Positions 10,598 to 52,368 of a DNA stretch of 64,000 nt are shown here, one piece after another. The notes below the pieces were generated by a model. That model ran no database searches and was not told the DNA's origin. It saw only the letters and a program-made list of their open reading frames with translations. Position 1 is the first letter of the stretch, and each line of letters starts with the position of its first letter. The stretch is from Geosiphon pyriformis uo1 (lineage: Eukaryota > Fungi > Glomeromycota): the NCBI GenBank assembly GCA_016748015.1, contig JAAOMT010000239.1, positions 547,554-611,553 of the forward strand, given 5' to 3'. A program made the translations under genes and the position numbers.

Positions 10598-13500
10598 GTG
10601 GCGACCACACCAGTTGCAACAACTCTAGAGTATTACCAATCAATTTACACCCACTGCAAGCAAAGATTCAACATTCCAGACGGAATTGAAGTTGTCAAGA
10701 AATCAGTATACCAATACATTGAAAACCGCATCAACAATTATCTTTTTGGAAATTACAATATCTCAGAAGTCAGAAGCAACCTTTACAATAATTTAGTACA
10801 CTATTCACAGTTGGGAACTGAAGACCTTAATAGTGAAACACTTGCCACTTACTTTTACGAACTTAATTTTAACATTATCAAATACTGTGAAAAAACATAT
10901 CTAGTGCAATCTCAATACACTATTGATTTTGAATCAGAAACAGAAACAAGCAACAAAAACAAATTAAAGCAATATTCAAGAACCACCCCAAATACTCCAA
11001 CACTACCAAAAACAATTGCCAAACATTTACAAACACCTGAACAAGGAACCAGCTCAAAACTTCCACTTACTATCACACCTTTTCCAGCCTCACTTGTACA
11101 AGCACAAACACCTAATTCACACTTGAATCGATTTGCAAGACCAGAAGATTTTACATCACTCAGAAGTCCCACCAGACAACAAGAACCCCTTCAAACTAGT
11201 TCCAATCTCCTTGATTTTCTAGCTGAAAATCAAAGTGAACACTCTGAGACAGCAGCAAACAAAGAAAACAACTCTAAAATAACCAAAGAAGAATCAATAG
11301 ACAGTGAAAACAAAATGACAACATACATCGCAAAAATTCCTGAATTCAATGGAGAAGATATTGAGACCAGTCCCCAAGAATGGCTTGACCAAGTTACTAA
11401 AGCTGGAGATGCAAATGGATGAAACACTGCCAGAATGTTAAGAACAATTCCCTACTTTCTTAAAGGAACAGCAGAAGAATGGTTTAAAAACCTTGCCACC
11501 CCATTCAATGATTGGAATGCTTTCAAAGCAGCCTTCCTTGAACAGTTCACTGACAATAATACCTCTATCACTCTTCGCAATCATTTTTGAAATATCAAAC
11601 AAGAACCCTCCGAATCTGTTATGACTTATATTGGGAAATTCAACAAACTTCTCAGATGGATTCGCCAACTCGAGACAAACGATTATTATTTCGATGCTCA
11701 AATCTTGGATCAATTTATTGCTGGTCTAAAAGATAAACTAATTAAAAAGGTTTGCCCACATGTGCCAGAAGATTTAAACTCTGCAATACAGTATGTGAAA
11801 AGATACGAAATGGCCATAGAAGAAGCCAATCATACAAAACTTGTAAATTTGGCAATTGGAGAACCCAGTTCAGCAGCTGAGGAAAAAATTGACCAACTCA
11901 CAAAGAAGGTCAAAAACTATTTTACTAACCAACAACAACAACAACCCCAAAGATATCAACCACCTCAAAGACAAAATCAAAATAACTTTGCACCACTTTC
12001 CAATAACCAGCCCCAGAATTGCCATTACTGTGGAATCTCTGGCCACTGGAAAAGAGATTGCAGAAAGCTGCAACGAGACCAACAAAATAGGGGTAATCAA
12101 CATTACTCTCTACCACAGCAATCTTATTATTAACCATTACCACCAGCTTACTATCCACCAAGACCCCAATACCAAAATAACTATTATCAGCCTGCCCCAC
12201 AACCAATCCAACAGCAATACCAACAACCACCCACACAACATTATCAAGTACCTGCTCAAAGACTGATTACACAAAATCAATTCACACCACAAAACCAATA
12301 CCAAGTAAACAACATTAGAATCAGTTCAAACAACCAATTGGTTCCCCGAAATACCACTCAACCAAGATCCAACCATTACTACACTCAACCCAGTTATTTA
12401 ACAATGCCAGAAGAACAGGATTTTCACCATACTGCACCCTCGGAAGGTAAAGCTACAGCACAACAACAACAAAACCCTTCTTATAACCACATCACTATTC
12501 CACCAGTCCGAATTGCTGAAAATGCCAATCTCTCTGATATCTTTCCTTTTGAATTTGAAGCAAATAAATCACCATTCTTGCTTAGCAATGCAACAGCTAA
12601 TGAGCAAAAAGCCATCACTGCAATGTACGCAGAAGCTGAAGTAGAAGGAAAGCCAATTTGCTTGATCTTAGACAGTGGATCTGCCGGAAGCATTATTACC
12701 TACCAGTTAATGCAACAATTGAAAAGAAATGTCGACCGACCAGCTCAAACAGTAATCGTCACTGCTGATGGCATGAAAAAAACTCCAGTAGGAGAAATTG
12801 ACAATTTTCCATTCACTCTTGATGGAATCACCATTTCAGTCAAAGTTCTTATAATAGACGCACCCCAGTACCAAGCTCTCATCGGAAATGATTGGCTTCA
12901 AAAAGCCAATGCTAATCTGAATTGGGAAACACAAGAGTTAACAATCTCCTACCAAGGACAACATGCCCGAGTATCTGCCATTTGTGGTACATTCAACAAA
13001 CGCTCTGAAAAAGCCCTGGCTTTTGAATTTGAACCAAAAGAAGAAAAACCAATAATCGAAACATTCATGGCTCTTGGATCAACATCCAACTGGGCCGATG
13101 AAACAGAACAAGAACATTTTACTCCACACACTAAACCCAAAATCTCTGGATGGAATATACCTTACTCAAAACCTGAACCAAGAAAACAATGCCCTTATAT
13201 TCCCCTTAAATGTAAGGACTGTCACAAGAAACTATCGTCAATGGGAGCCTGCATTTCACCTGAAGAAGAATATGAGAATCATACTTGTTATTACTGCAAG
13301 GCTTGCCACAGAGAGCGATGGGGCCATCTAATAAAAAGGAGCGGAAAATAGGACAACACCCCTTGTTTGACTTGTGGAGATATGCTACCAGAAGAATGCA
13401 ATTGGATTGATATAGCAATGAAAGGAGGCATCTGCGATCAGACCTGCCAATATGCTTTATCAATTTCAGAAAAAGTAAAAAGAGGAACACTCTTTAATGC

Positions 13501-15260
13501 AGCATACAACAGTGCTCTCAACAAACTTTATCATTACCCTTATGATGCCGAGATGATTTTCGACTTAGCAATGGCATTAATTAATGGAACTACCAAAGAA
13601 GATATTCGTCAAATGAAGAAAGCAGAATACATTGAATACACTATAGAATTAGCTGGATTCAATTACGAAGATGAAGTAGAAGTCTATCACCAAATTGCAA
13701 GTTACATCTACCCGACCCAAGAAGCTCAAATTCAACGATTAGAGCAAATGAACATTAGGCTATGTGAAGAATGCATTATGCCTTGCGATGAACAATGGTG
13801 TCCTGAATGCTATGCTCTTAGTATCCCCTTGCCCAGCAAAAATGATGAGAATGAAATTGAATTTGGAGAACCTGAAGAAATGGAAGAAATTGAAACAACA
13901 CCCATCTACCTTATCAAAAATCAGCCTGTCTTACAACTTAAATACTTCAACAACAATGAACAAGGAATAAAACTTGAAAAAGCACACGAAATTAATGCTG
14001 GATATGACCTAAGATATCCAGGCAAGGATACTCTTGTTCTCAAACCCAAATCTCTCACAAAAATCAACCTCAAAATTGCACTTGAAATTCCGCCAGGAGT
14101 CATGATTTAAATCGTCTCTCGGTCCTCTCTAGCAAGCAAAAGAATTAATGTCAGAGGAGGAATAATCGATGCTGGATACACTGAAGACATAACAGTGATG
14201 CTTCAAAATGAAACTGACAAACTATTCAAGATTGAACATGCTGAAAAAATTGCCCAAGCTATTTACCTACCCTTAATCAACATTTCGGGTTTGCAACTAG
14301 TCAATCAAAGAGAACAATTAGGAAAAAGCGATAGAGGAACCCAAGGCTTTGGTTCAACTGGACAATTCACAGTTCCAGTTAATATAGCTCTTAATATACA
14401 GAACAAATCCCACCAAATTCTCAGACTTCCATAACCGATTACCATTTCACCCTTTGGAGAACATCCAGAAATTTACACTTGCATAAAGCCAACAACCACA
14501 CAACAAATTTTTGAGTCCAATGAACAAGTCTGCTTGGAACATAATATTTTGATCCCAAACATTTATATTCCAGAAGGAACAAAGAAAGTCTGAGTTACTT
14601 TTTACAACCCCAATAATTACCCCATAATTTTATTAAATAATTTAGAAATTGGAGTTATTCACAGTAATATATTTCAACAAGAATTACCCCAAACAGTCCC
14701 CAATTTCCCTGAAATTATTGGACATTCACTACCAAAAATCAACTTAAATCCCAGCTCCGAAAACTACCATGTTGTCATGAGAAAACTATCTCGAATTAAC
14801 ATGGGACAACTTGAACCACAACAACAGACCCAGCTCAAAGAGCTAATTGCAGAATTTGCTGATATCTTCGCCGAAAACAACAATGACTTAGGAAGAACTG
14901 ATTTGGTTCAACACCAAATCTATACAGGAGATGCCAAACCAAGGTGACAACAAGTTTACCGAGTTGCTCCAGAAAGTCACCAATTTATCCGAAAAGAAGT
15001 ACAATGGATGCTTAACAATGGGCTTATTCAACCATCAATGAGCCCATGGGCCTCATCTGTGGTTCTAGTTAAGAAAAAAAATGGAAAGATACGATTTTGT
15101 GTTGATTACCGACAACTTAACAGTGTCACTATTGGGGATGCCTACCCTCTTCTCCGAATTGATGACATGTTGGATGCCCTTGGAAAGTCCAAATACTTTT
15201 CAACATTAGATTTAGAGAGTGGATACTGACAAGTTGCTATGGATCCCAAAGACCGCCCCA
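10598..15260 (+). pseudogene. Element B polyprotein: GTG extension-Gag (CCHC knuckle)-PR-Cys-rich-dUTPase-RT N-terminus, truncated by deletion
   Basis: ORFs at 10598, 11621, 12338, 13367, 14195 and 15008 share a frame. Motifs CHYCGISGHWKRDC, LILDSGS, AGYDL, RGTQGFGSTG, RFCVDYR. Confidence 0.92.
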
Positions 15261-15842
15261 AATTCACGAAAATATCACCTGTATAAAAAGAAAACAAGAA
15301 GTTATACTGGAATTCACCTGCCAGAACTTTTAAAGCTTGCTTTAAGAGAAAACCTAATGTTCACTCCAATTAGTATTCCACCAAATGCTACAATTCAACA
15401 AAAACTTCAACTGTGTCTCAATGAGGAAAACACTGAATATCCTCCAATCTATAGATATTTTCACATTGGAAAAACACTTTATAAATAGAAACTGGAACTT
15501 ATAACAACAAACCTCACAAAAGAAGCTATTCAGAAACAACTCCACAATGAATTCAAGACAACAGCTGGATCAACAAACAGTTGCTACAGGCTTAGAGCTG
15601 CTCTTAGATTTTATGACCTATTCCACACCTGTGAAAACGTACTACAAAACCCAATTTTTCAACTTTTGAAGATTCAATACATTGAAAAGCTCACAAAACT
15701 GAAATTTTAACAATTTTCAGACCAAATTTCTTCAATAATTTTGGATTATTATCTGGAAATAACAGACAGTACTTGGATTTCGATGGAGCTCAGTCTTAAG
15801 GAGGAGGTTATGTTACCAGACGAAATTAGAGATATCATTTAG
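15261..15842 (+). pseudogene. Element B ORF3 remnant (unknown helical protein), running into the 3' LTR
   Basis: YFHIGKTL...AALRFYDLF...IEKLTKLKF pattern shared with the other ORF3s. Confidence 0.65.
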
Positions 15843-16789
15843 CATGAAACTATCTTATAATTCCTATCATTAATTAGCATATATTATCGTTTCAAATTAT
15901 TACTTATGACATTAGCAAAAATGTCTGAAATTATCATTAATTAATAACCCAAATTGTACACAACACAAATGTAACCTAATTGCGATGATCAATCATGCAA
16001 TACCCCGAACTATGTAACATTCAGAAGTTCGCCAAAATTTGTAGAAATCCACCGAAATAATTGATAGTTCACTGAAATATCTAATAGTTTGCCAAAATAA
16101 CTTGTAGTTCGCCGAAATGTATCTTTAGTTCAGCGAAATTGTAGAAAATAGCAAAGTTCAAGTTCATAGAATAGTGTTACAACAAGTTGTATAAAAAAAG
16201 AGCTTCTTTCTCCAAGAAAATGTATCTTACCTTAGATTTATCTCTTAAAACCGTTCCTATATACACAAAAAAAAAAATATATCAAATAATTCGAAAAACC
16301 AAATTCTTTAATTATTGTACTTGGAAAATTCCCAAAACCCAACTAACATTTCAAAATTGATTAGCTACCAATTTCAGTAAACTGTTAGTGACTCCAGGCC
16401 TGGATAGAAAACGTTTCTCTTGACAAAATTCTATTTTTTTTACATTTCTTTTAGTTTCCTTTTCTTTTCTTATTACAATTATTAGGGTAGCCTACAGACG
16501 AGATTTCTGTAGAAGAGTTGACTTTCACAGCAAAGTAACTACACATTTTTAGTGAGCTTCCAGACAAACAATTTCTGGAAAAGAGTTGACGTTTACTACA
16601 ATGTAACTACATAAAGTAACTGGCAAGGAATTGGCCATTCCACTCATAAGCCCAGCAAGTTCAAATTATAGGAGATAATTTGAAGATAAATTCAGTTACT
16701 GGAGGTTCAACCACATCCAGAAAACGTGAATTCACAGCAAATAAGTATCAACAACATTACAGAAAAAAGACCAAAAACCTCCAGTAACA
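15811..16789 (+). repeat. 3' LTR of element B, preceded by PPT AAGGAGGAGG (15798-15807)
   Basis: Direct repeat of 9574-10552. Confidence 0.95.
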
Positions 16790-17555
16790 ATGTCCAAAAG
16801 AATTATTATCAGACCAAGGAACTCATTTTGTGAACAGAACATTAACAGAATTGAGCCAAAGATTCGGAATTAAGAGACCATTATTATCACCATACCATCC
16901 ACAAACCAATAGATTAATCAAAAGATTCAACAGAACATTGTGTGAAGCAATAGCTAAGTTCAGCCAAAAAAACCAGAACAATTAGAATTTGTTGATATTA
17001 TCAGTACTATTTGCTTATCGGACAATAAAGCAAGATACTACATAAGCAACACTATTTGAATTAGTATATGGTAGAACAGCAACACCACCAGTGGAAATAA
17101 AAGTCAGCACATACCCAACCGAACTAATAACAGAAAAGAATTTCAAAAACACATTGTTGAGAAGAACATATGACTTAATGGAAACATTAGAAAACAAATG
17201 ACAAAGAACAGCTGATAATATACAAAAGTCACAAAAAAAACAAAAAAAAAGACATGATAACCAACTACCAGATAAACCAGTTGAATTCAAGATTGGAGAC
17301 AAAATACTACTACATTGTACCAAAGTGGAAAAACAATAGAATGGAAAATTTGACCCTAAATGGAACAGACCATTTCACATAGAAGAAATTCTAGGAAATA
17401 AAGCTTACAAATTAAGATTAAATAACAAAATCTTGACCAACGCAGCACATAGAGATTGACTGAAATCATATCACCATATAGCATCATCAGCCACCAGTAA
17501 TATTTTACAATTAGGAGTACAAAGAATACTAGTCCAACCAAATAAAATTCCATAA
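16790..17555 (+). pseudogene. Element C integrase, C-terminal part
   Basis: SDQGTHF, PYHPQTN and GPY/F-like region; no chromodomain recognised. Confidence 0.88.
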
Positions 17556-17596
17556 GATCTGGAATTAATCATTATTATTAACAACAACACATCCAA

Positions 17597-18283
17597 TTGA
17601 TCAACAAAAGAATATATAAGAACATGGTCAATGCAACAGAAGAGATCAAAAAAATGGAAATTATGGACAATATCCATTCACTAGCCCAACAAATTTTTCA
17701 ATTAATCCAACACCAGGAAATAGAAATTACAATCAATCAACAAACCATTCATTACAAAAATATGGCAAAAATACCACAAAACAAAGCACAGAAAAAACTT
17801 GAAAATATTGTTGACAAGATTATAACCAAGATAAAATTGGCCATAAAAGAACAACAAATAATTAGATTATACCAAGAACTTATCAGAGAAACTTGGATTT
17901 GGTGGACACAACAATTTCCGAAAAACTATTGTCATTTTCACTTGAGACAACACGTAAATATCCAGAATTTGTACACTGACAAAACAAAATGGTTATTTGA
18001 TACAACAATACTAAGACAACTAGAACAATTTGTGGGAAAAAACAATCTAACCACACAAGTTCGAGTTATTTACTGGCTATATATGGGATTTCAAGACTGA
18101 CCAAAAATTTTACTTAACACAGCAATGGATACAATTACGAGTAATCAATTGAGAAAAATGACCAATGCCCAATTTAAAAAACTACAAACTAAAATAACAC
18201 AAGTAATACTTGAAAAAAAAGTTCAAGAAATAATTCAAGAAGGAGAATTAAAGAAATTAGATTTCGATGGAGCTCAATATTAA
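17597..18283 (+). pseudogene. Element C ORF3 (unknown protein, one internal TGA), ending LDFDGAQY
   Basis: Clear homology to E ORF3 at 34888-35328. Confidence 0.78.
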
Positions 18284-18296
18284 AAGGAAGAAATAA

Positions 18297-19180
18297 TGTT
18301 ACTCATAGAATATAAGAAATATAGTATTATTAGTCAATAAATATTAGCCAATCAGATATAGACATAGTAAATGTGGAATTCCAAGATTTCTCTCAAAGGA
18401 ATTGCAGAATTCCAGGAATTTCAGAATTCTCCAACAAAAAATCGCAGAATTCCAGAATTCCAGAATTCCTCTCATCAGAAATTGCAGGATTTCAGGAATT
18501 CCAAGATTCCTGTTACAAAAAATTAAGGAATTGAGGAATCTTAAATATGTATATATAGCAGTAGCATTAAAAGCAGAAAAGACAGAATTGACACTAAGAA
18601 CTCTTAGCTTAGTTACCACAATCCTCAAATAAATAACTATTCACTATATCAAATTCATTCTTCACTATCAACACTTCATGTTGATAGTAATTGATACTTA
18701 ACTATACTAGAACAATAGCTCTTGATCACGGCTATTGATGGGATACTAACTTGTAAATTATCTTGGCTTATTTCTTATTTTTTTTTTTTATCTTTTCTTT
18801 ATTTTCTTTGTTGTCTACTAACTTGATTAAAAAATTTATTCTTGGAACACTTATGGAGGAATAAAACTTAATTAAACAATACTTACTCTTGGAGAACTTA
18901 CAGAGGAACTGACGTCAGGAAACAGCACTGGTATATACTTATGGAGGATATCATACTAGGAAAATCATCAACCATTAAGCTAAGCAAGCAATTGATGAAA
19001 CTACAGTTTCAGAAAACTATTAATAAACTGTTATCTTTGAATCTTTGTCTATTATACAAAGAACTCAATTGGAAAAACCTTCAGACAAAATACCTTCAGA
19101 TTATCATTGTTACCAATCACTTTGAGCACCAAGTTATGGGTTTGTTATTTACATGACACCCCAAAAAAACATCTGTAACA
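18297..19180 (+). repeat. 3' LTR of element C (884 bp) with GGAATTCCA/CAGGATTC tandem array
   Basis: TGTTACTC...TGTAACA termini; purine tract at 18282-18293; U3 shared with the D LTR. Confidence 0.93.
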
Positions 19181-27074: not shown

Positions 27075-27614
27075 TGTTACGGTTTAAAAATTTAGTAAAA
27101 AGAATCATAAAAATAATACAAACTATTCAATCATAATATAGCACAGTAATAATCTTAGAAAGGTAATGATTAACATAGTAGCAAACACCATCTCGCAATA
27201 GTGATAAGCACCAGTTCACAATAGCAGCCAACACCAACTGGTGATAGCAGCAAACACCAGATTGAAATATCAAAAAAAGAAAGTATTACAATGTGTTTTC
27301 TCGTAGAACTACAAACATGTATATATACAATAGTTTTAATATTGGGAAATAATCAATCAAGTAATAAAAATCATAACTTATCAAGCAATAGATCCAATTT
27401 TATCCAACAAACTCCACTTTAAATCATACTTTCAAATTAAATATCCCAAGAAACCTTTAAAATTAAAAAGAAATGAAAAAGAATATTTAAAACTAAACTA
27501 TCACAACCCAAAGTATTAAGAAACTTACTTGTATTATTTATTGAATGAAACTATCATTCATTAACTGAATCCTTTGGAAGAATAATCCTTGATCAAGATT
27601 ATTCACATTGTTAC
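27075..27614 (+). repeat. 5' LTR of E, truncated (U5 and PBS missing)
   Basis: About 97% identical to 34405-34851 and 35349-35452, then jumps into coding sequence. Confidence 0.88.
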
Positions 27615-30600
27615 CTGTCTCTTATAATCCATCGAGAAATTGAGCAATACACCAACAAAAATTTTCCAATATCCACAGGAAACACTAGGGAATATGCCAA
27701 CAAAACCAAAGAAAATTTAGAAACTAATCAGGAAAGTAACCAGCAAAAACTAGAAACACCAGCTCAAACGCCAAAGAAAACTGTCACTCAATCAATAAAA
27801 AAACAACGTATTTATTCACTAGAAGATAAATCATACCATTTTTCACCAGAAAATAAGATACAAATTCCATTAGAAGCTGCATCATTATTAACATCAACTC
27901 CACAAATGCCAAGAACTCTTAGTTATACTGATAAAATTAAACAACATAACTGGGGAGACATACCAATTACAGGAGGATATTCATTACTATTCCAAAACCC
28001 TTTTTTTCAGCCAAAATTTAGAACAGGGTTTGAAAACCATGAAGAGGAGTCTGAATCGGAATCTGAAAAAGAGACCAGTAAAAAAACAATCACAAGACCA
28101 GTCACTGGAACAAACAGCCAGTCCAGAAACCAAGAAACTTGTGATCAAGAGAAAGAACTGGATATAAGGGAAGCCACCTTTAGGAATGCTCAAGGAAATA
28201 TCATCTCACCTCCTCTTAGACCAATAAACCCACCAGCAGAAAATGGCAACGAAATGACCACATCATACATTGCAAGACTAACAGATTTCTCAGGAGAGGA
28301 AGAAGAAATGGACATGCACACATGGCTCAGAGAAGCACAAAAAGCCATCCAGGCAAATAACTGGAATGACCAAAAAGCAATTCAAACATTATCTTTCTTC
28401 CTGAAAGGCACAGACGACTTGTGGTATCAAAGCCTGGAAACAAAACCCACGAGCTTTGCCAAATTTAAAAATGCACTTCTGGAGTATTTTAGTGACCCAA
28501 ACGCCATAATCCAACTACAGAACAAATTCAATACTATCAAGCAAAATACTGGTGAAACTGTCACCCAATACCTTGTTCGATTCAATCAAATTCGCCATCA
28601 GATTAAAGCAATTAAACAAGGATACTACACTGATTCTCAAGTTTTAAATCAGTTTATTAGAGGATTAAAAAGCAGCATTTTAAAAAGAGTATGCCCTGCC
28701 CACCCTAATTCCTTACCAGAAGCCATTACACTCGCCAGAGCCTTTGAATCAGCTGAGAAAGAAGCTAACCATAGTCAAATAGTTAACATGGTAATGGAGG
28801 AAAATAAGACAGAAACATTAGAGAAAAGAGTAATGCGATTAGAAGAGGAACTCTCTAAGAAAATAGAAAGTTACCTCATCCCGAATCTGAGAAAAAATAC
28901 ATACCAACCACCTCAAAGACGCAGCCAGGAAGTTAGTAACAGTTGAAATAATCACTCGTCGCACCAGGAATTCAGAACAGAAACACGCACCTGCCATTTT
29001 TGCAAATGCGTAGGACATTTGATTAGTCAATGTTGAACGCGAATGATGCAGAAAGCATGCGAAAATAATTACTACATGCCACCCCAAATGCCCAGAAACC
29101 AGTACATGCCAATACCATGCCAATATCTCACCATGTATTAAAATCAAAGAGCTTACCAGCAACAGCCCATGATAGCCAACCTGAATTGGTGTCCTGAGGC
29201 CCAAAATCAGCCCATGTGGAACCAGAACGTGTTAGTTTAGAGGAATCCAAACCGCGCCGGAACCAATCAGCAAACCAATCCAAACTACCAAAATTATCAA
29301 CAAACTTACCTTAATATACTGGAAAATCTGATTATCGGAAACAATGATGGTAGAAACATAAACAGAACCAAAAATTCCTCTAAATTGAGCCAGACAATAC
29401 CACCAGCAGTTGCCACCGAAGATAGCAGCCTCGCAGCTATTTTTCTTTTTGAATTAGAGGAAAACAAGGCTATGTTCAGTGGAGCAGCATTGGATGAAAA
29501 ACGCCCAATCACTACTATGTATACGGAAGCCACTGTAAACAATACCCCAATCAAACTTATCTTAGACAGTGGATCCACTGCAAGCATCATAACGCTTCAA
29601 CTAGTAAACCAACTGGGTTTCAAAGTTAATTGTGCCATGACATCCCAAATTATAACAGCCGATGGAAGTACAAAGCTGTCTCATGGCGAAATCGACTCAT
29701 TCTCTTTCGAAATTAATGGTATAGTAATACCTACAAAAGTATTAGTAATGGATGCTACACAATATCAAGCATTAGTAGAGAATAACTGGTTAACAAAAGC
29801 CAACGCCACCCTAGACTGGACCACCCAAGAGCTTCTGATCAATTATAATGGCCACCAGGCCAAAATTCCAGCCACTTGTGGCCACTTCCAAAAACCCAGC
29901 ACCAACCAAAGACCTATCTTCGAATTTGAGGAAAATCCAGCACTACCAGCCATTGAAATCTATTAGCTCTCTTGGGCTGATGACCAAAAAACAGAACTAC
30001 CAGCCATACCAACGTGGACCAGTGAAGAAAGATCCGAATGGAACCAGGTAAGTTCACAAAGAAACTACCAGCGACGCAGACCATAGCTAGAATGCTCGGT
30101 TTGTAAGAAGAAACTCTTGTCTATGACTGCGTGCAGCACACCAGACAAAAACCCAAGAAACCCCACCCACTACTATTGTAACTGTTGTAATAAAAAAAAA
30201 TACGGTTATCCAGAAAGACACGGAAAATGGGATGAGGAACCGTGTCTCGCTTGTGGAGAACCATTACCAAGAGGATGTAACTGGAATAACATACCAGACA
30301 AAGGAGGAACGTGTGACGCAACTTGCCAATACACGATCCTCATCTGTGACTGGGTAAGAAAAAGAATGCCGTTCGAAGCAGCATTCAACAGAGTGTTAAA
30401 AAGATTACAGCACTACCCACATGACGAGGACGAGCTGTACAACACCACACAAACCAAAGTAAGAGGAGGAACTGCCGAAGAAATACAATGTTGGAAAGAG
30501 TCAGCCGAAGTAGCTGACGAAATCGCCAGCTACAATATGTTCGACCCAGTGGACAAATTCCAGGACTACTACCAACAACTATGCCCCACTTAACAAGAGC

Positions 30601-32891
30601 AAAAACAATATCTTGCCCAAATCAACACTTACCTCTGCGAAAACTGTCTCATTCCATGCCAAAATCAGTGTTGTGAAGAGTGTCAAGATGAAAGGGACTT
30701 AAAAAGAAAAATGGAAATTGAGAATTAGCAGTCTCAAAATCAATCAATAAATCAACAAAACTTACCTGACAGTCCTGAGTTAGAAAAATTTGTAGTCTAT
30801 ACCGACCTAGAACAGGTAACTGATATCTGATACTTTGACAACAAGCACTTAGGAATAATATCCAAAAGAGCCCATCCAACCAATGCCGGATTCGATCTAT
30901 GTTATCCAGAAGACCAATCCACAACGTTACCACCCAGAAGCATCACCAAAATCGACCTAAAAATAGTGGTTGAAATTCCACCAGGAATAATGGTTCAAAT
31001 GGCGTCGTGATTAAGCCTCGCAAAAAAAGGAATAAGCATTCAAGAAGGAGTAATTGACTCTGAATACACTGGAAATTTGATGGTTTTGCTACAGAACAAT
31101 TCAGAAAAGCCTTATATCATTGAATCTAAGGAAAAGATTGCACAAGCAATTTTCCTACCATTGGTAAAAATTGGGAAATTTGTGCCAGTGGAAAATTGTA
31201 AGGAATTGTCACAAACAACGAGAAGAATTTTTGGTTTTGGATCGACAGGAAAAAGAATTGAAGTGAATTTTGCTGAAACAATAGAGGAAAAAGGCGAAGT
31301 AATTAAAAATGAGTGGTCTATCACACTCCTATCATATGGAAAATCAGAAATAAGAATAAAAAGGACAATTAAAGAAAAAGACTTAATATTTGAGCCCTAC
31401 TCAGAAACTTGCTAACAGTTTCTCATAGGACTTACTAACCTTTTTATTCCAGCTGATAAAGCTCAATGGATAAAAATTTCTATTGCAAACACCACAGAAG
31501 AACCTGTTTACATTCCGGAAAATACCATCATTGAATACCTCGGAATGGAGCTAAAAAATGCGTCAACACCACAAGAAATTCTAAATTTCCCAGAAATTGC
31601 TCTCTACTGTAAACTCACTTCAATAAATTGGCAACAACCATTAGAATGCTATCAATTTACACCAGAAAAATTGGCCAAATTAAACATTAGAACAATGGAT
31701 CCTGACCAACAGTGACAATTAAAAGCATTAATTTTAAAATACTCTGATATATTTTCAAGAAATAGCGAATTTGGAAGAACCAACTTGGTTCAACACCAAA
31801 TCTCCACTGGAGATGCCAAACCTAAAAAACAATGCACTTACTGTGTCCCACCAATGGAGCATAATTTTATCAGAGAAGAAGTCCAAAGCATGTTGGAAAA
31901 AGAAATAATACAACCATCAATGAGCCCATAGTCTTCACCAGTTGTTTTAGTAAGGAAAAAGAACGGAAAAATTAGATTTTGCGTCAGCTATCGCAAACTA
32001 AACAGCAAAACAACCAAAGACTTATACCCAATACTGTTAATTGACAAAATCTTCGACGTTTTTGGAGGAGCAAAATGGTTTTCTACACTGAACTTGACCA
32101 GTGGGTACTGGCAAGTGGAAATGGACCCAAAGAACAGGCATAAAACAGCATTCACAACACAAAATGGCAATTATGAGTTCAATGTAANNNNNNNNNNNNN
32201 NNNNNNNAAAAATGAGCTAGCATTTTTAGGACATGTAGTTGGAAAAGATGGAATAAAACCAGATCCATCAAAAATAGACAAAGTGAAAAATTTTCCAGTA
32301 CCTCGAAACATTTCAGAAGTTAGAAGCTTTTTAGGACTCGCATCTTACTACCGCCGCTTTGTAGAAAACTTTTCAAACATCACCAAACCCCTTAATTACC
32401 TACTATCTAAAAATGTGAAGTTTGAATGGACTGAAGCACAACAAAAAGCTTTTGAGTACCTTAGACAAAAGCTCATTGAATCACCAATAATGATCTATCC
32501 GAATTTCAACAAAAAATTTATTTTGGCCACAGATGCCTCTGGAACTGGACTTGGAGCCATTCTGTCACAAAAAGATGATAATGGAAGAGAACATGTAATC
32601 ACTTATGCCAGCAGAAGTTTCAGTATGGCAGAACAAAACTATGCAGCACATGAACTTGAATGCTTAGCAGTAGTCTGGAGTTGTGTTCACTTTGACACAT
32701 ATTTACGGTACCAACCCTTTGAGATTATGACAGATCATAGAGATCTGGTCTGGTTAAATAACAAAAAAGCACTAAAAGAAAAATACACCAGATGGTCACA
32801 AATGTTAGCATCATATGATTATATTATCAAATACAAAGAAGGTACCAAAAATGCTAATCCCAACTGTTTGTCAAGAATGAAACACACATAA
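27615..32891 (+). pseudogene. Element E polyprotein: Gag-PR-Cys-rich-dUTPase-RT-RNase H
   Basis: Motifs CHFCKCVGHLISQC, LILDSGS, AGFDL, FGFGSTG, ATDAS, ELECLA, TDH. Confidence 0.9.
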
Positions 32892-32920
32892 AAATCACCA
32901 ACCTACCCGCCACAACAACA

Positions 32921-34142
32921 ATGAACAACCACCTTTACAAAAACCTCAGCCAATACTTGGAAACACTACAAATAGACAAAAAAATGCCAGTAAAAGAGCT
33001 AATTAAGCTCCAAAAATTAGCAAAACACTATTTCATCCAAAATCACATACTTTATTACCAGAATCAACAAAATTCAGATAATTCATTAAGAGTTATAACC
33101 ACAGATAAAAAAGAAACTATCTTATTTAACATGCACTCAGATATTTATTTAGGCCACTTTGGAAAAACAGCAACCATCCAACATGCAACTAGCCATTACT
33201 ATTGGCCAAAAATAAGTTCAGACATAATCCAATACATAAGAAATTGTGACCCATGCCAATGAAGAAGAGGAACAAAAACAATGGAATTATTAAGACCAAT
33301 AAAAGTTGGACAGCCATTTGACAGAATTGGAATTGATTTAGTTGGACCCTTACCAATAACAACAAGAAACAACCATTATATTGCAGTAGTCATGGACTAT
33401 CTCACCAAATGGCCAGAAACTAGAGCTATTAAAACAGCTGATGCTATTTCCATAGCTCAATTCATACATGAAGACTTAATTTGCTGACATGGATGTTCAC
33501 AAGAATTGCTATCAGATCAAGGCACACACTTTGTAAACAGCACCTTAAAAGAACTTAGCCAAAAATTTGGAATCAAGTGACCACTGTCATCACCATACCA
33601 CCCTCAAACAAATGGATTAATTGAAAGATTTAATCGCACATTATGCGAATCACTGGCGAAAATTAGTAACGAAAATGAAAAAGAATGGGATTTGTTTATA
33701 CCAGCAGTACTACTAGTATATAGAACAGTAAAACAAGATACTACACAATTTACACCGTTTGAACTAGTTTATGGAAGAAAAGCCACATTACCAGTTGAAC
33801 TTACTATCCCAACTTATCCAAGTGACACTATCATGGAAGCAACATTCCAGGAAACACTACTTAGAAGAACATACGAATTAATGGGAACTTTAGAAAACAA
33901 AAGAAAAAAAACAGCACAAAATATTGAACAATCACAAGAACAACAAAAAGTGAGATATGATAACCAGTTACCAGATAATATAATTAGCTACAAAATTGGA
34001 GATAAAGTATTGTTGCATTGTACAAAAATGGAAAAACAGTGGAGTGGAAAATTTGATCACAAGTGGGATGAACCATTTTATATTCACAAAATACTTGGAA
34101 ATGGAGCATACAAGCTAAGACTAGATGATAAAATATTAAGAA
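32921..34142 (+). pseudogene. Element E integrase (separate ORF with own ATG)
   Basis: Motifs H...GHFG...CDPCQ, GIDLVGPL, SDQG, ERFNR. Confidence 0.9.
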
Positions 34143-34404
34143 NNNNNNNNNNNNNNNNNNNNTACATTCCATTCAAAAACAGTTTACAGAATTTTCAAAG
34201 CATTTGAAAACTGTCACAAATTATTGTTGGACCCAATTATGAACATAATAACAACCAATAGTATTGGATGACTTACCAATTCACAATTTCAAAAATTACA
34301 ACAACAAATTAATAACACAGTATTGAACCACTATAGTAACTTAGAATTTAATGAAGAAATTAACTTTGATTTTGATGGAGCTCAATCTTGAAAGGAGGTG
34401 ATAA

Positions 34405-35790
34405 TGTTACGGTTTAAGAATTTAGCAAAAAGAATCATAAAAATAATACAAACTATTTAATCATAATATAGCACAGTAATAATCTTAGAAAAGTAATGAT
34501 TAACATAGTAGCAAACACCATCTCGCAATAGTGGTAAGCACCAGTTCACAATAGCAGCCAACACCAACTGGTGATAGCAGCAAACACCAGATTGAAATAT
34601 CAAAAAAAGAAAGTATTACAATGTGTTTTCTCGTAGAACTACAAACATATATATATACAGTAGTTTTAATATTGGGAAATAATCAATCAAGTAATAAAAA
34701 TCATAACTTATCAAGCAATAGATCCAATTTTATCCAACAAACTCCACTTTAAATCATACTTTCAAATTAAATATCCCAAGAAACTTTTAAAATCAAAAAG
34801 AAATGAAAAAGAATATTTAAAACTGAACTATCACAACCCAAAGTATTAAGANNNNNNNNNNNNNNNNNNNNAAAATTAGAGATAGCATTGGGCAATACAT
34901 TAATAATGGAAGAAATAAAAATAAGTGAATTAACACCAGACACATTTAGCAACTTGAAAACAAAATTTTCAATTAATTACTGTTATTATCAACTAGGAAA
35001 GCACTTGAACATACAAACATTATACTCAAAAGACTCAACTAGAGTGTTTGACAAAACAACTATCCAACTATTAGAACCTTTCATTGGAAAAACCAACACT
35101 ACATTCCATTCAAAAACAGTTTACAGAATTTTCAAAGCATTTGAAAACTGTCACAAATTATTGTTGGACCCAATCATGAACATAATAACAACCAACAGTA
35201 TTGGACGACTTACCAACTCGCAATTTCAAGAATTACAACAACAAATTAATAACACAGTATTGAACCACTATAGTAACTTAGAATTTAATGAAGAAATAAA
35301 CTTCGATTTCGACGGAGCTCAATCTTGANNNNNNNNNNNNNNNNNNNNAAGTATTAAGAAACTTACTTGTATTATTTATTGAATGAAACTATCATTCATC
35401 AACTGAATTCCTTGGAAGAATAATTCTTGATCAAGATTATTCACGTTGTTACTAATTGATAAAAGCTTTATTGTAAGAATTAGAAAAGCACTAAAGACCA
35501 TTAACATTCTGTGTTTCTAGATTAGAGAAACACATCAGGCAATTGCAAAGATAGCCTTAGAGAAGACCCCAAACAGTGGGTAGATTTCAGTTCAGCCTCT
35601 GAGAAGGAGTACATAAACACACACAACAATCAAGAATTGAAGAATAACTTACATCGCAACAGTAAAAAAAAAGCCTTCAGTATAACAGTGACATTATTAC
35701 ACAAATAAAATTGAGGAACTTACGAAAGACTGATTGCAATTAAAATGGGATATCAGCAATTAAATATAACAAGAAAACCATTCCGTAACA
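34405..35790 (+). repeat. 3' LTR of E in two pieces (34405-34851 and 35349-35790) around a gap-bounded ORF3 contig
   Basis: The pieces overlap by AAGTATTAAGA; PPT GAAAGGAGG upstream. Confidence 0.8.
34872..35328 (+). CDS. E-family ORF3 C-terminal part (unknown protein ending NFDFDGAQS); second partial copy at 34163-34391
   Basis: Open 146-aa frame homologous to C ORF3. Confidence 0.7.
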
Positions 35791-45355: not shown

Positions 45356-45997
45356 TGTTACAGTTGAAACCCATAATTTTTATTAGTTATCACATGTATT
45401 AGTTACTGATGTCATATAATTAGCCACTCTATTTTTAGATAGTAATCAATGACCTGACTGTTGACCTGGTCATTGACCACTTTCAATAGCTATATAAGCA
45501 ATAAGTCTCTTAGCTGTAGAAAATCATCTTTTAGACAAGAATTAAATAAATAAAAATAACAACTTTTATCTCAATCACTCTCTTATCGCTAATTTTCCTT
45601 TCCCTACCTTCAAGTATCCGAACATCTTAGGATAAAAGATTACTTGTTGGCCTTTTCCTGATGTATATAATTATAGCATTAGAAGATTATTTGAATAAAC
45701 GTGACTGAAAAACACAAGTTGATACCTGATATTGAATTCTAAAAGCGCCAATGTGAGGCATAGAATTATACCAGTGGTGATCAATTGTTGATAGTACGAA
45801 CTATCTCTCTACCTTTAGATTCTCCAGTTACCTTTGAAAAAAATAGCGACTGAGATATTTTATGAGACTGATCTCGCACATTGAATTCATACTCATTCAA
45901 TTTACTCTTTGAAGTTGAATCCTCTTTGATTATTTCCATCACCCTACAATCCTGTTCTCCCTTGCTATCTGTTAGCTTGTTACTCCAACCTGTAACA
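45356..45997 (+). repeat. 5' LTR of F (642 bp)
   Basis: Direct repeat of 52338-52991. Confidence 0.94.
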
Positions 45998-46003
45998 TAA
46001 AAG

Positions 46004-46020
46004 TGGTGCTTCCTGTGAGG
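46004..46020 (+). promoter_or_regulatory. Primer binding site of F (TGGTGCTTCCTGTGAGG)
   Basis: Same type as the C and D PBS; 6 nt after the LTR. Confidence 0.82.
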
Positions 46021-46069
46021 TTGTCAAAATTCACTTATTCCTTTATTGTATGAGTGATTACTCATATCT

Positions 46070-47609
46070 GCCATAGCAATCAGAAGAACACTTTACAACA
46101 CACAACAGAAATGACCTAGATTTCATTAAACTTAATTCTCTGCCCTCCTGCTTGATCTGCTTCCCCCTTGAAAAACAATCCAGTAGACAATTCTAAGACT
46201 TTTAGAACTGGTTCCTGAATGAGCATTCAGCTGAAACCTACACAGCTTATACAATCTATTACTTTGACCAAGCTTATTTTGAAAGTGACTTTGAAGAAAA
46301 AAACAACAGTATCAATCAGCTCTTATATTCTGCAACCTTTAAACAACAGCCCCCTGATTTCGAATATCTGAATTATTAAATCTACATTTGGATTGCTGCC
46401 CATCAAGCAACTGAAACTCCCTTTGAAACAGAAGAAGAAAGCTACCAAACTGCCCCTATTTTTGATCTTTTATCAAGCAAATCAGACTCATCTACACAAA
46501 CAGTTACCCCTGAACCAATGGCTAATGACCCCATGCAAGCAAACATTCTGGCCGCCCTCCAAGGTATATAAACTGCTCTAGGAAGAAAAAACAATACCCC
46601 ACTACCACTATTTAGAGGTAATGCACAAGATCCAATTGAATGGTTGGATGATTTTGAGAAAGCTGCCACAGCCAACCAGTATGATGAAGAATACAAGTTT
46701 CAAATTGTTGGTGGCTACTTCCAAGGCTCTCCTACTACCTGGTTCTCACAAGAAACAAATACCAATGCTCAACACAAAATAATCAGATAGACACCAATCA
46801 ATGCTGGAGAAGAAAATACCTCTTTTACTATCCGATTTAAGGCCAAGTTCAGAACTCCAATATTAATATCCAAATGGCACATGGAATTGGAAAGAAGAAC
46901 CCAAGGTCTTGGAGAAGTAGTGACTGAATATGCCAAAGCTATTAGAAAGCTAATCAAATGTGTAGACTCTGAAAGAAACTAGACAGAAGAACAAAAGATT
47001 TATTCCTTCACAAAAGGATTGAGAACCGATTTATCTTATGCTCTTTGGCCTCTCTTGGCCCTAAAAGACAACCCTACAATAGACATGGCCATTGAACTTG
47101 CCCAATGAATTGAAGACAACCAAAGAATACATTTGGGATCTACACTTCCAGTTTTTGCTCCTGCTCCTGTCATGGCTTCTGCCTCTCAAATGGCTGCTGC
47201 TTTTTTTGCTGCCCAAACTCAAGATCCAAATGAACTATTAATTGATAGACTTACAGCCAATCTTGCCCGGTTATTAGAACCTTTGGCACAAGCAGTCAGA
47301 GATAACCAGCAACCACCAAGACCTAGATATGAACCTCATTTTAACCAGCTCCAGCAATCTCCCTATCAAAGACAGCAAAATCGTGGCCCACCTGTGTGCT
47401 ATTGTTGTGGATTAACTGAATATTATTCAAGAGATTGTAACAATCCTCCACTGCCTCTTCTAGCTCCCAAAAACAATGACAACCAAAACAACAGACCCAA
47501 CAACAACAACAACAATGTCCCCAATCAAAGACCCAATCATGCCAACATCAATTTCTTTGGAGAGGATCTCTTAGTTGAAGCCACTGTTTATTAGCCTTTA
47601 AACTGGTAG
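46070..47609 (+). pseudogene. Element F gag (start uncertain)
   Basis: QDPIEWLDDFEKAA capsid-like segment; degenerate knuckle CYCCGLTEYYSRDC. Confidence 0.8.
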
Positions 47610-50290
47610 GTGCACCTCCAAAGGGTGAGAGTACAAGCCAACCAGAAGAAAACTCCTTTTACACTTTTAACTTAACTGATGATGACCATGACATGGATAA
47701 ACTAGCAATTAACACCTCAGAACCAACCAGAAAGAAGAAGAAAGCCAAGGTTGATTTCGTTCTAGACCCCAACAAAGCCTTAACTTCTGCTGCTAATAAC
47801 AATAAGCCACCAAAGGCTAAAGTCTTTAAGAATCCCCCAAAGTTGGAACCCTCAGAAATTGTACAAAAATCTGGATCCTATTCTGTTGTCAAAGATTTCA
47901 TGGAAACTCCAGCACATATTACCTTTGGCCAGTTAATGACCCACCCACAGTTCAGAAAGAATCTTCGCAAATCCTTGATCTCAAAGAAGAAGACACCAAA
48001 AACCAACAAGTGCCCTCGCCAAGCTGGACTTGCTGACAACAGCAATGTTACCCCTCTGATTTGTAAAGCCCAAGTGGCTGGATACTTCATTGACTTAATT
48101 CTAAACAGTGGATCATCTGTTAGTGTTATTGCCAAACACTTCTTGGAAGCAATTGGTAGAAAGATTGATGAACCTTCCACCAAACCAATGACTAACGTAC
48201 ATAGTGACAAAAAAAAAGGACTGGGCATTGCCAAAGCTGTTCCTGTCCACATCAATGGAATCAGCATTGAAACTGACATGGAAGTTTTTGAAGCCAAGGA
48301 ATACACCATCATTGTTGGCAATGAATGGCTCAAGAAAGCAAAAGCTTTGCTTGATTATGAACTTTGTGAATTAACCATCAGATGTGGTGAGAAACTTATT
48401 GTGGTTAAGTGTTGCCATTGGAAAACTCCCCCAGTATCCAAACAAAACCAAGAAGAAGAACAATCAGATAAATCAGATGATGAAGAGAGCGATGAAGAAG
48501 AAGAACAAAAAGAACAAGAAGAAACTGCTAAACTCGCCTATACCACCTTTATCAGCAATGGCAAACCACTGGACAATATTAAAGCAGACAAAGAAAGAAT
48601 CATTGTAAATGGCAAGCTGATCTGCTGGCCTTATTATAATATTCTTAGAAGAACCTTTAAAAGAAAACCTGGCAAGAAAGCCAAATACAGTTTTTGGTAG
48701 CATGGTCTTTGTGCCCGGTATTAGTGCAACAAACTCTTGTATTCTCCAAACGATGAATGCAAATCATGTCTGATCTATTACAGAGATTGGGAACCAATCA
48801 GTTTGATACCCAGAGAAGAATTGAAAAAAGTACAGAAGTCCTTTGAGAATGAACCACCTGAGATCCAATCACTGATTGTAGAACAAAAAAAACCCTTCCC
48901 AGAAGAAAGAAAAATAGACATTGAAAATTTGCTGGCTAGAAATAGCCCAGTTATCTCCAAAGAAGGTAATACCTCTGGACGTACCCATGTGATACAACAC
49001 ACCATCACCACCAGAGAAACTTGACCCATCTATTTGAAGCCTTATCAATCCAATCAGCACAATGATAAGTTTATCAAGAAAGAGATAAACTAAATGAAAG
49101 AACTTGGATTCATACAAAAAACCAAGAGTGAATAGGCTTTTCCAGTTGTAGTGGTATTCAAGAAAAGTGAAACACTACACTTCTGTGTTGACTATTGCCA
49201 ATTAAATGCCATCACTGAAAGAGACATGTATCCACTTCCCAAGATTGATGCAATGTTAAACCAATTCAAAGATGCTGCTTTCTTTTCAACTATTAACTTA
49301 ACTGCTAAATTCTGGCAAGTAGAGATGGATCCAGAAAGCAGAAAAAAAACTGCCTTCATCACCAAGTATGGCACCTATGAATTCACAGTCATGCTTTTTG
49401 GTCTCACCAATGCTCCTCCCACTTTTCAATGCTTAATAAATAAAGTATTTGAATCAGTTAAGGAAAACTTTGTTCTAGTCTATTTGGATAACATAATGGT
49501 ATACTCAAAAACCTGGGATGAACACCTAAAACATTTGCAAAAGGTTTTTGACCTCCTCAAAAATGCTGGCCTCAAGATCAATCCAATCAAATTTTTTTTT
49601 GAAAAACAATCCACCCAGTGCCTTGGTCATCTTATCACAAAAGATGGAATCTTTCCTGACCCAGCCAAAGTTGAAAAAGTCCAAAACATCAAACAACCAA
49701 TGAACATTCATGAACTATGCTCTTTTTTTGGTTTGGCCTCTTATTATCGCAAATTTGTTAAGGATTTCTTCAAAATCGCCTTTCCCCTCAATCAGCTATT
49801 CAGGAAAAATGTCAATTACCATTGGGGAACACATCAGCAAAAAGCCTTTGAAACTTTAAAAAAAAAACTGGTTACAGAACTTATTCTCAAGCAACCTGAT
49901 CTAAATTGACTCTTTATCCTCCACACTGATGCATCTGGTTTTGAACTTAGTGCTGTTCTCTCCCAGAAAGATGAAAATGGCAAAGAACATGCTATAGCCT
50001 ATGTCAGTAGAACTCTTTTCCCAGCAGAACAGAACTATTCAGTTACTGAACAAGAATGCTTAGTAGTAGTATGGTCCATCAGTTACTGGAGTAAGTATCT
50101 TCTTGGTATGAAGTTTTTGGTGGTAACAGATTACCAAGCTTTGGTTTGGCTGCACAACAAAAAGAGGCTAGAACATAAATGAATAACTTGCTGAATACTC
50201 CACTTGGATGAATTTGACTATGATATTCAATATCACAAAAGAGCTAATCATCAAAACGCCAATGCTCTCTCCAGACTTACCATCCAGTAA
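47597..50290 (+). pseudogene. Element F pol (PR-acidic/Cys segment-RT-RNase H), in the -1 frame relative to gag
   Basis: Motifs LILNSGS, FCVDY, YLDN, HTDAS, EQECL, NANALSR. Confidence 0.9.
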
Positions 50291-50351
50291 CAGAACAACT
50301 CTCTAAAACCAAACCAACTTAATTATTAGCAATTCCCCTTTTTTGACAAAC

Positions 50352-51610
50352 ATGATAATAGACTTGGACAACTACTTTGCCTTAATAGAATTTTTGAGTA
50401 AAGGACAATACCCACCAAAATATACACAACAACAAAGAGAACATTTGTGCAAACAATCAAATTTCTATTTGATTCACCAGAACCAACTTTATAAAAGAAA
50501 TAAAAAAGATCCTGACTGCTCTCAGAGAATCATCAGATTTGAAAAAGAGAAATTGTGATCTACAATATACACACTAATCCATTAGTTGGACACTTTGGAA
50601 AAACAAAAACAATTCAGAAAACTCTAGCTCACTATTATTGGCTTACCTTGGGAAAAGACATTGCTGAATACATCAAAACCTGTAATATCTGCCAAAGAAG
50701 AGGAAAACCCAATCGCAAAGAAGATATCCATCCAATCTCTGTTGGTCAACCTTTTAACAGAATTGGTATAGATGTTGTTGGACTTTTAACAATAACTCCT
50801 GATGGCAACAGATATATTATCACAGCTACCGACTATCTTATAAAGTGAGTAGAAGCAAGAGTCACTCCAGACCAAACAGCAGTCTCAATAGCCAATTTCA
50901 TTTATGAAGATATTATTTGTCACTATGGCTGCCCCAAAGAACTTTTATCTGACAGAGGAAGAGCTTTTCTCAGTACACTTGTTGAAAAACTTTGCAGAAA
51001 AATGGAAATATGTCACAAACTTTCCTCTTCTTATTACCCCCAAACAAATGGCCTAGTAGAACGTTTTAATAGAACACTATGTAAAACCCTAGCCAAAACC
51101 AGCGAAAAAACAAACTTATGGGACAAAGTACTGCCTTTAGCTTTGTTTGCTTATAGAACTGTAAATTATAACATAACAAGTTATGAACCCTTTTATCTAT
51201 TCTATGGACGAATGACAACTCTACTAATAAAAACTGACATTGAGACAATACCCTTTGAAGAAATAACAATAGGGAATTACAAAAACATTTTGCAAAGAAG
51301 ACTTGGTACCATTCTTGACTCATTAGTAGAAGCACGGATAATTGTCTTTAAAAAGATAAAACAATTTCAAGAGAAGCTTAAGAAAAAAAAAACATATAAA
51401 ACACTTTTCTTAAGTGTTGGTGACTTAGTTTTAGAATACTGTTTAGACAAAGACAATGTCTATGGTGATAAATTCTCTAGCTGGTGGAAAGGACCCTTTA
51501 TAGTCAACAAAGTTTTGAACAATGATTCTTATATCTTACAAGATCAATATGGAACAATCTTTAATGATTGCCCTGTTCATGACACACAACTCAAGAAATA
51601 TCACAAATGA
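50352..51610 (+). pseudogene. Element F integrase (separate ORF)
   Basis: Motifs GHFG...CNICQ, GIDVVG, PQTNGLVERFN. Confidence 0.9.
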
Positions 51611-51615
51611 CCTGA

Positions 51616-52368
51616 TTGGTTACCTGTTGTGGTAATACCAACCCAAATAATCAACAAAAATCAGATATAAATAAATGCACCATTCCTAAAACAGAGGTAT
51701 TTTCAATCAACATGAACAATTATTTTTTGGATCAAAACATTCAAAACACTTTCTATACTCTCCATGAGTACTGGATCAAAAATTATCCAAATGCTATTCT
51801 GACCATTGGAAAACAAACTACCATAACTGATAACAGTGGAATACATACTGTTATTAGACCAAAGAAAACCACTACCAAAAGAGAAAGAATTGGTAGCAAA
51901 ATGGATAAGTATTTGCTGGAAAGCATAACAGCAGCAATACTTACACCTTCCATGACAATTGGAAAAACAATTAAGGAAATTTTGCCTATAGACAAAAACT
52001 TGTCATATGGAAGGCAACTAAAACTCTATGGTTGTCTTGGTGAAATCATAGAAGAAATGAAGCTTATGAAGAAAACAACTTCAGAGATACAAGTGGAAAT
52101 TTTGGGCATTATACGTTTAGATGTCTCAAGAGTTTTGACCATTGCAAAAAGAGCCAAAACTCTTATACAAAGATTTGGTCTCTTGGATACAAAGCTTATT
52201 TTACCTCAAGTACTATATACTCTATTCACAAAAGACTTTAACAAACTAGTTAGTTTTGAGTTAAACAAAACCCTTCAATTAGAATACCTTATAAATAGCT
52301 TAATTTTGCCAGAGCTCAATTTCTTTGGAGAGGATGATATTACTGTTGAAACCCATAATTTTTATTAG
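51616..52368 (+). CDS. Element F ORF3 (unknown protein; open 250-codon frame running into the 3' LTR)
   Basis: Same position as ORF3 of B, C and E; weak LY..LG / A.RA..L / F.KL pattern. Confidence 0.65.
   Translation: MVTCCGNTNPNNQQKSDINKCTIPKTEVFSINMNNYFLDQNIQNTFYTLHEYWIKNYPNAILTIGKQTTITDNSGIHTVIRPKKTTTKRERIGSKMDKYLLESITAAILTPSMTIGKTIKEILPIDKNLSYGRQLKLYGCLGEIIEEMKLMKKTTSEIQVEILGIIRLDVSRVLTIAKRAKTLIQRFGLLDTKLILPQVLYTLFTKDFNKLVSFELNKTLQLEYLINSLILPELNFFGEDDITVETHNFY

Follow-up and report, generated by a model that had tools for sequence, protein, structure and literature searches.

Ty3/Gypsy (Metaviridae) retrotransposons are bounded by long terminal repeats (LTRs), encode a Ty3-type capsid followed by protease (PR), optionally dUTPase, reverse transcriptase (RT), RNase H (RH) and an HHCC/DDE integrase (IN) with an SH3 tail, and are flanked by 4-bp duplications. 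In LTR retroelements and retroviruses, the release of IN from the Pol polyprotein, which is also its carrier into the particle, is treated as the rule. Here we analyse a stretch of 64,000 nt from Geosiphon pyriformis uo1 (Glomeromycota; assembly GCA_016748015.1, contig JAAOMT010000239.1, positions 547,554 to 611,553 of the forward strand), referred to as the window, which represents an AT-rich cluster of LTR retrotransposons and long interspersed nuclear elements (LINEs). The Ty3/Gypsy elements found there and in related loci share the traits just listed, while they differ in that IN lies outside the Pol open reading frame (ORF) with a start of its own and in that two further ORFs, designated ORF-X and ORF-Y, follow IN.

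Among the systems which may be compared, LINE-1 translates its ORF2 by reinitiation across a 63-nt spacer and SART1 uses a stop-start overlap (PMC5972666). As in the elements described below, an enzyme cistron lies downstream of a long ORF behind a short spacer or an overlap (PMC5972666). LINE-1 and SART1 are, however, non-LTR elements in which the split separates ORF1 from a whole enzyme ORF, whereas here it lies inside pol and its mechanism is one that we infer. Reinitiation at a stop-start overlap is also used by caliciviruses (PMC10275272). Foamy-virus Pol is made apart from Gag and is packaged through the genomic RNA, a case which resembles ours in that the enzyme, not being produced together with Gag, requires a separate way into the particle (PMC7828637); there, however, the whole of Pol is separated by splicing and IN is still cleaved from it, while in our elements IN alone is separate. 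Tandem sense ORFs on one reverse-transcribed RNA are shared with the caulimoviruses that encode TAV (PMC5972666), and fungal elements with a dUTPase placed between PR and RT have been described (PMC6431247). Ginger/GIN DNA transposons likewise encode a gypsy-like integrase on its own, in a free ORF of some 400 aa, but the ORF considered here is located within an LTR-bounded gag-pol element directly after RNase H, and we therefore rejected its assignment to a Ginger-type transposon (integrase-only, with terminal inverted repeats and without gag or RT). In the full-text literature, a scope which does not extend to Repbase Reports, GyDB and subscription journals, we found no Ty3/Gypsy integrase in an ORF of its own. 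The wording “separate ORF” concerns, in the passages in which it occurs, gag/pol, env, aRNH or non-LTR elements (PMC6839031, bioRxiv 10.1101/2021.03.30.436303, PMC6431247, PMC7192593, PMC13468544, PMC2582038, PMC4427930, PMC5911963). The split may have been noticed earlier.

Three RH-IN junctions are present in the window, in the LTR-bounded copies C, E and F, and all three are split:

32889..32891, + strand: copy E Pol stop TAA, four codons past the RNase H end motif LSR (LSR-MKHT-TAA)
32892..32920, + strand: copy E RH-IN spacer, 29 nt, A/C-rich, without AUG, without AG, unstructured
32921..34141, + strand: copy E integrase ORF with its own ATG at 32921 and A at -3 (Pfam Integrase_H2C2, rve_3, SH3_Tf2-1)
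8942..9009, + strand: copy C Pol stop TAA (8942-8944, LLQ-MRQI-TAA), 62-nt spacer and IN ATG at 9007
9007..17434, + strand: copy C integrase, interrupted by the nested copy D
50288..50354, + strand: copy F Pol stop TAA (50288-50290, LSR-LTIQ-TAA), 61-nt spacer and IN ATG at 50352
50352..51610, + strand: copy F integrase, decayed, with a frame break near 50540

According to Pfam, the domain order is PR-RT-RH-IN, with a dUTPase between PR and RT in C and E. Gag, PR, RT, RH and IN matches follow each other in this sequence in C, E and F, the gag of F not being among the regions scanned; matches to PF19259, PF03732, PF17921, PF13683 and PF24626 indicate a Ty3-type capsid and a gypsy-type HHCC-DDE integrase. 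Copy D lacks the RH-IN region, and two further copies are truncated at the ends of the window. The stops, start codons and spacer lengths agree with the original prediction, as does the placement of IN in a frame other than that of Pol (offsets of -1 in C, -1 in E and +1 in F). The additional claim that Pol ends exactly four codons past RNase H is correct for these three copies; as a family rule we rejected it, as tail length varies among relatives. A tail of four codons occurs in 5 of the 61 short-tailed homologues listed (range 1-30, mode 3), the loci outside the window show tails of 3, 3, 4, 4, 4, 10, 11, 20 and 315 codons, and family-wide Pol extends past RNase H by either 1-30 aa or about 150-400 aa. 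In a similar manner, the proposed common N-terminus of IN applies exactly to copy E, whose Met lies 78 residues ahead of the second His of HHCC, while in copy C the seventh codon of IN is a stop and the ATG of copy F (MIIDLDNY) precedes the family register by two codons. All junctions of the window are predicted to be unstructured. Copies C, E and F are CpG-depleted, full of stops and dead (E carries 13 stops in gag-pol and three TGA breaks in IN, whose ORF is ended by an assembly gap), and the case for the split is thus made by intact relatives.

From these we conclude, with a probability of roughly 0.95 as judged from sequence, that the separation of IN from Pol is a lineage-wide property of these Ty3/Gypsy elements and not a product of decay. 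A search with an RT-RH query against proteins of at least 399 aa gave 3491 matches. Among the 120 of them listed, 61 terminate no more than 30 residues past the RNase H motif (most often after 3), in 40 the protein extends further without an IN being recognised by pattern, 8 are fused, and in 11 the motif is missing; the 40 long tails are mostly acidic extensions, with several fused outgroup proteins having been missed by the pattern. The IN query, in which X was placed at breaks, returned 1358 matches of near-equal length, and the best 120 of these are free proteins of 381-453 aa which are 43-51% identical to it. A start of the type M[DEN]xxxYxxLxxYL is found in 95 of these 120, and Met precedes the second His by 67-80 residues in 100 of 119, the distance amounting to 78 in 66 of them as well as in copy E. 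Since a near-length search is blind to fusions, longer proteins were searched in addition, where 4 of the best 120 reach at least 39% identity as opposed to the 43-51% of the free integrases. Two of the gene models concerned, P0242 and P0243, leave out both the end of RH and the first helix of IN, P0244 is devoid of RT, and the fourth is P0246. A continuous RH-IN frame in young copies was not found; instead, near-identical free integrases of 430 aa recur at several loci of Rhizophagus irregularis. In DNA, 80 metagenome loci (L numbers) were considered and used only where the RH end and/or the IN start was readable, which led to 14 junctions and 20 starts picked by eye; L084 joined the set later. 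All 14 of these outside junctions are split, with intact flanking ORFs in several of them (L001, L003, L013). Together with those of the window, 17 of the 17 in-group junctions examined are split, a departure from the usual trait of a polyprotein-borne IN, while distant loci of about 30-35% identity are fused. Both the intact homologues and the outside loci therefore bear out the view of IN as a separate ORF; the fused relatives are P0074, P0251 and perhaps P0246.

The named close homologues belong to Rhizophagus, Dentiscutata, Cetraspora, Entrophospora, Paraglomus and Gigaspora and thus to Glomeromycota, and the top Atlas clusters for one homologue are from Mucoromycota. Trees were built on subsets (every second to fourth match), unrooted and without named reference elements. 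In the IN tree the split elements lie on one side of a branch (60 rows, support 91), a side which also takes in P0074 and P0246 as well as three gene models and two fused loci of plant-like type. The RT-RH tree places 61 split rows among the 62 of the corresponding side (support 92), with two short-tailed rows falling outside, and in the IQ-TREE analysis, from which P0246 was dropped by a motif filter, 30 of 32 rows are split, the others being P0074 and P0251 (Shimodaira-Hasegawa-like approximate likelihood ratio 90). In P0074, P0251 and P0307 a short linker joins RH to the same first IN helix. Judging by these trees, the fused relatives sit near the base of the group, and the short-linker fusion is likely the ancestral state, as far as this may be deduced from trees lacking a root. 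A strictly lineage-wide split is challenged by P0246 (GBC54380.2), an R. irregularis gene model which is fused, with a full RH end and a long linker, and nests inside the split group, by branch supports of 90-92, none of which is starred, and by the fact that some of the short Pols may be cut at contig ends.

As to the mode by which IN is translated, the frame of IN relative to Pol is -1 in 8, +1 in 6 and 0 in 3 of the 17 junctions. The spacers span -8 to 727 nt, mostly 29-110 nt: stop and start overlap once (AUG-GA-UAA in L017), two junctions have a spacing of 29-30 nt and the remaining ones are longer. In L007, an AUGA overlap couples IN to ORF-X. The IN AUG looks like a true, Kozak-like start, with A at position -3 in 17 of 23 IN starts, as compared to 35 out of 109 AUGs located internally (p 3e-4; against local base composition, p 0.002). 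Furthermore, the 14 spacers shorter than 200 nt contain 2 AUGs versus 11.5 expected (p 2e-4), whereas all 16 spacers contain 21 versus 30 because L002 and L015 contribute 7 and 12, respectively. Kozak-like starts, AUG-poor spacers, the overlap of AUG and stop and the presence of further ORFs downstream favour termination-reinitiation on a polycistronic RNA, to which we give about even odds. Of the routes named in the original prediction (reinitiation, splicing, subgenomic RNA) all stand as candidates, and the sequence evidence puts reinitiation first. An overlap of AUG and stop, as in L017 and L007, is reminiscent of the TURBS (a site for ribosome binding upstream of termination) of caliciviruses and influenza B (PMC10275272). 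Unlike there, most of our junctions have spacers, and the core UGGGA is found within 120 nt upstream of the Pol stop at 1 of 17 junctions only, for which reason we rejected it as the element in question.

According to this reading, a fused ancestor whose RH and IN were joined by a short linker, as seen in P0074 and P0251, would have gained a stop and a start within that linker, and separate translation would thereby have replaced the proteolytic release of IN. Ribosomes would terminate on Pol and restart shortly downstream on the same polycistronic RNA. At short spacers such as those of C, E and F, post-termination 40S subunits would cross an unstructured, AUG-free stretch; the 29-nt spacer of E is indeed free of AUG, but that of C contains an additional out-of-frame one at 8988. 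In L017, the restart would take place at the overlapping AUG, and one subclade would employ a conserved hairpin just 5' of the AUG. The free IN, having no tie to Gag, would most likely reach the particle by binding the genomic RNA, or else act in trans; by analogy to foamy-virus Pol, RNA binding would be the simplest packaging route.

The hairpin in question is a motif of about 40 nt which is present in eight loci, where it ends 0-12 nt 5' of the IN AUG, and most of the loci harbouring it have, where visible, a long acidic Pol tail. Including L084, its positions are:

L003:4462-4503, hairpin motif
L006:584-625, hairpin motif
L007:184-225, hairpin motif
L010:489-530, hairpin motif
L012:174-215, hairpin motif
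L014:7-48, hairpin motif
L021:491-532, hairpin motif
L024:18-59, hairpin motif
L084:160-201, hairpin motif

It consists of two helices in which pairing holds in 88 of 88 cells, and 5 of the 11 pairs show compensatory changes. None of 500 shuffles scores as high and slid controls reach 20-51%, these comparisons being inflated as the structure was derived from the same sequences. A model built from the motif detects the held-out L084 at an E value of 2e-10 and a variant in L005 at 0.11, while nothing in the window matches it at E<=5, and Rfam yields no match at E<=1 over 15 loci. Single-sequence folds do not show the hairpin. Its end is a YAG in 9 of 10 loci, located 5-22 nt ahead of the AUG and closely preceded by a bulged A. 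The hairpin could accordingly serve in translation, in splicing as a structured acceptor, or in packaging as a signal. L084 itself is a 1.4-kb contig in a bacterial metagenome-assembled genome, which carries a fungal-type IN together with the hairpin and is likely a bin contamination.

Several observations weigh against reinitiation. An AUG-free leader and a Kozak context are equally predicted by a subgenomic mRNA; the spacers of L002 and L015 (365 nt with 7 AUGs and 727 nt with 12, respectively) are hard to reconcile with simple scanning; the TURBS core is confined to 1 of 17 junctions; the hairpin may be a splice acceptor; the IN frame of copy E runs open through the Pol stop; and 6 of 17 junctions, among them F, though neither C nor E, formally allow a GT-AG intron that keeps the frame. 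The main rival is a separate IN made from a subgenomic mRNA which is either spliced from the 5' LTR or started at an internal promoter, a possibility we take seriously yet regard as clearly less probable. Long AUG-containing spacers as in L002 and L015, the YAG and the bulged A which are conserved where the hairpin ends on its 3' side (9 of 10 loci) and the precedent of foamy virus (PMC7828637) speak in its favour. However, no YAG is present within 100 nt of the AUG in E and L022 or within 150 nt in L011, the hairpin variant of L005 has no YAG, upstream AUGs would come ahead of IN in E and L017, and the stop-start overlaps of L017 and L007 suggest coupling. Going upstream from the AUG of copy E, the first YAG is reached at a distance of 112 nt, and three AUGs (-44, -70 and -106) lie in between, so that a spliced IN mRNA using a nearby acceptor fits poorly. 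Internal ribosome entry independent of Pol termination, with the hairpin as entry element in one subclade, appears unlikely to us. The complete pairing with its compensatory changes, the retrieval of L084 and the location of the hairpin end 0-34 nt 5' of the AUG are consistent with it; on the other hand, the model has no match in the window, whose junctions are unstructured, 42 nt is very small for an internal ribosome entry site, and single-sequence folds of L003 and L084 do not return the hairpin as the best structure.

Even less probable is a Pol-IN fusion restored by frameshift, readthrough or a small intron, from which IN would still be cleaved as part of a polyprotein. Such a restoration is compatible with the IN frame (-1 in E) that is open across the Pol stop in E and L017, i.e. 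in 2 of 17 junctions, with the single in-frame stop of L011, with a 43-nt frame-keeping intron permitted by F and with the existence of four fused gene models; in addition, the lineage may use readthrough elsewhere. Yet three different frame offsets occur, most junctions have IN-frame stops within the spacer, the conserved Met resides in a Kozak context, slippery heptamers are found at 2 of 17 junctions, E not being one of them, and at 11 of 17, C and E included, no intron is able to fuse RH with IN. Since frames are mixed while heptamers and possible introns are few, no single recoding or splicing event restores the fusion. Both a uniform programmed -1 frameshift (frames 8/6/3, open overlap 2/17, X XXY YYZ heptamer 2/17) and a conserved fusion intron were thus rejected. 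Finally, the Pol stops could be nothing but mutational decay of dead copies, all three of which are riddled with stops and depleted of CpG. From the densities of decay stops in the three pol frames (14/514, 13/1773 and 6/496 codons), the chance of three stops sharing one codon amounts to about 2e-6, or about 7e-5 if any of 30 codons is allowed, values which leave the change of frame uncounted. As this coincidence is so improbable and intact relatives such as L003, L013 and L001 are equally split, decay was rejected and retains hardly any probability, in agreement with the original prediction.

Downstream of IN, ORF-X, a conserved ORF of about 145 aa, follows in 10 loci, mostly 32-129 nt past the IN stop:

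L001:2284-2712, ORF-X
L003:5890-6330, ORF-X
L006:1918-2364, ORF-X
L007:1488-1916, ORF-X
six more loci, ORF-X

A search with it resulted in 436 clusters (50% identity) at E<=0.001 and in no Pfam family. The predicted model is confidently helical with a predicted local distance difference test (pLDDT) score of 95.5; Foldseek retrieves nothing for it from PDB or BFVD at E<=0.001, which does not show the fold to be new, and its best VIA-align hit has a Z of 5.1 with a root mean square deviation of 3.2 over 69 residues. A second conserved ORF, ORF-Y, starts about 1.05-1.1 kb past the IN stop (L001:3226-, L003:6804-, L006:2984-). By their sequence layout, the elements are polycistronic. To our knowledge, caulimoviruses have no integrase. 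A likeness of ORF-X to TAV was not found by Pfam, Foldseek or VIA-align, with no clear fold match either way. It is a rather doubtful, if attractive, idea that this Glomeromycota-wide Ty3/Gypsy lineage might be polycistronic in a caulimovirus-like manner, with Gag-Pol, IN, ORF-X and ORF-Y made by reinitiation, a structured RNA before the IN start in one branch, and ORF-X acting as reinitiation factor or as an adaptor loading IN into particles.

A large lineage which extends over the named orders of arbuscular mycorrhizal fungi and dispenses with the release of IN from a polyprotein indicates that a separate supply and packaging of IN are feasible. For reinitiation behind long fungal ORFs it is a source of natural test sequences, and it offers a small covarying RNA element as well as a new protein family. 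With respect to annotation, such elements look broken to pipelines that demand an uninterrupted pol, the junction is spliced over by gene finders, and free integrases are filed as host “DDE integrase” genes.

The remaining features of the copies are as follows:

27075..27614, + strand: copy E 5' LTR, 97.8% identical to 34405-34851 and 95% to 35349-35452, beginning with TGTTAC
27549..32891, + strand: copy E gag-pol, a single decayed frame for Gag, PR, dUTPase, RT and RNase H (Pfam Ty3_capsid, Asp_protease_2, dUTPase, RT_RNaseH; translation with the 13 in-frame stops)
32188-32207: 20-N gap inside copy E gag-pol
34029..34310, + strand: weak ORF-X remnant between copy E IN and the polypurine tract, duplicated at about 35098-35247
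34405..34851, + strand: copy E 3' LTR, resuming at 35349-35452 after gaps
2401..19180, + strand: copy C, whole element with D nested within, LTRs 2401-2642 and 18939-19180
9574-16789: copy D, nested in the copy C integrase, 4-bp duplication ATGT
45358..52991, + strand: copy F, whole element, LTRs 45358-45997 and 52340-52991, 4-bp duplication ATAT

LTR pairs in the window are 88-98% identical (E 97.8%, F 90.6%, C 88.4%), and the ends TGTTAC...GTAACA together with 4-bp target duplications are present in D and F. The LTRs of copy D are 96% identical, while most of its RT, RH and IN is gone. The trace of ORF-X in copy E reaches E values of 0.002 and 1e-4 with a profile of the outside loci, and of only 0.014-0.08 with a deeper profile, which renders it weak. 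At the 3' end of copy E, 34163-34391 and 35100-35328 constitute a 229-bp duplication between 20-N gaps which is probably an assembly artefact. Open frames also follow IN in F (51616-52368, 250 aa) and C (17582-18100, 172 aa), with no convincing Pfam match and no match to the ORFs of the loci. A Cys-rich region between protease and dUTPase (window 30087-30593) is common to C, D and E and has no Pfam match in E. The long acidic Pol tail past RNase H contains a conserved Cys/His cluster (L003:3493-4438, L006, L021), possibly a zinc-binding domain. In three loci the otherwise open gag-pol is interrupted upstream of RT by an in-frame TGA followed by CTA (L002:870, L017:1585, L015:3358), for which decay of CGA is a possible origin; TGA-CTA is a classical readthrough context. 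Outside the LTR elements, two decayed LINE-like elements of about 76% likeness occupy the - strand at 19409-27126 and 35760-40834 and comprise endonuclease, RT and RNase H, and a fragment of a tyrosine-kinase-like protein kinase is located amid the repeats at window positions 23917-24807.

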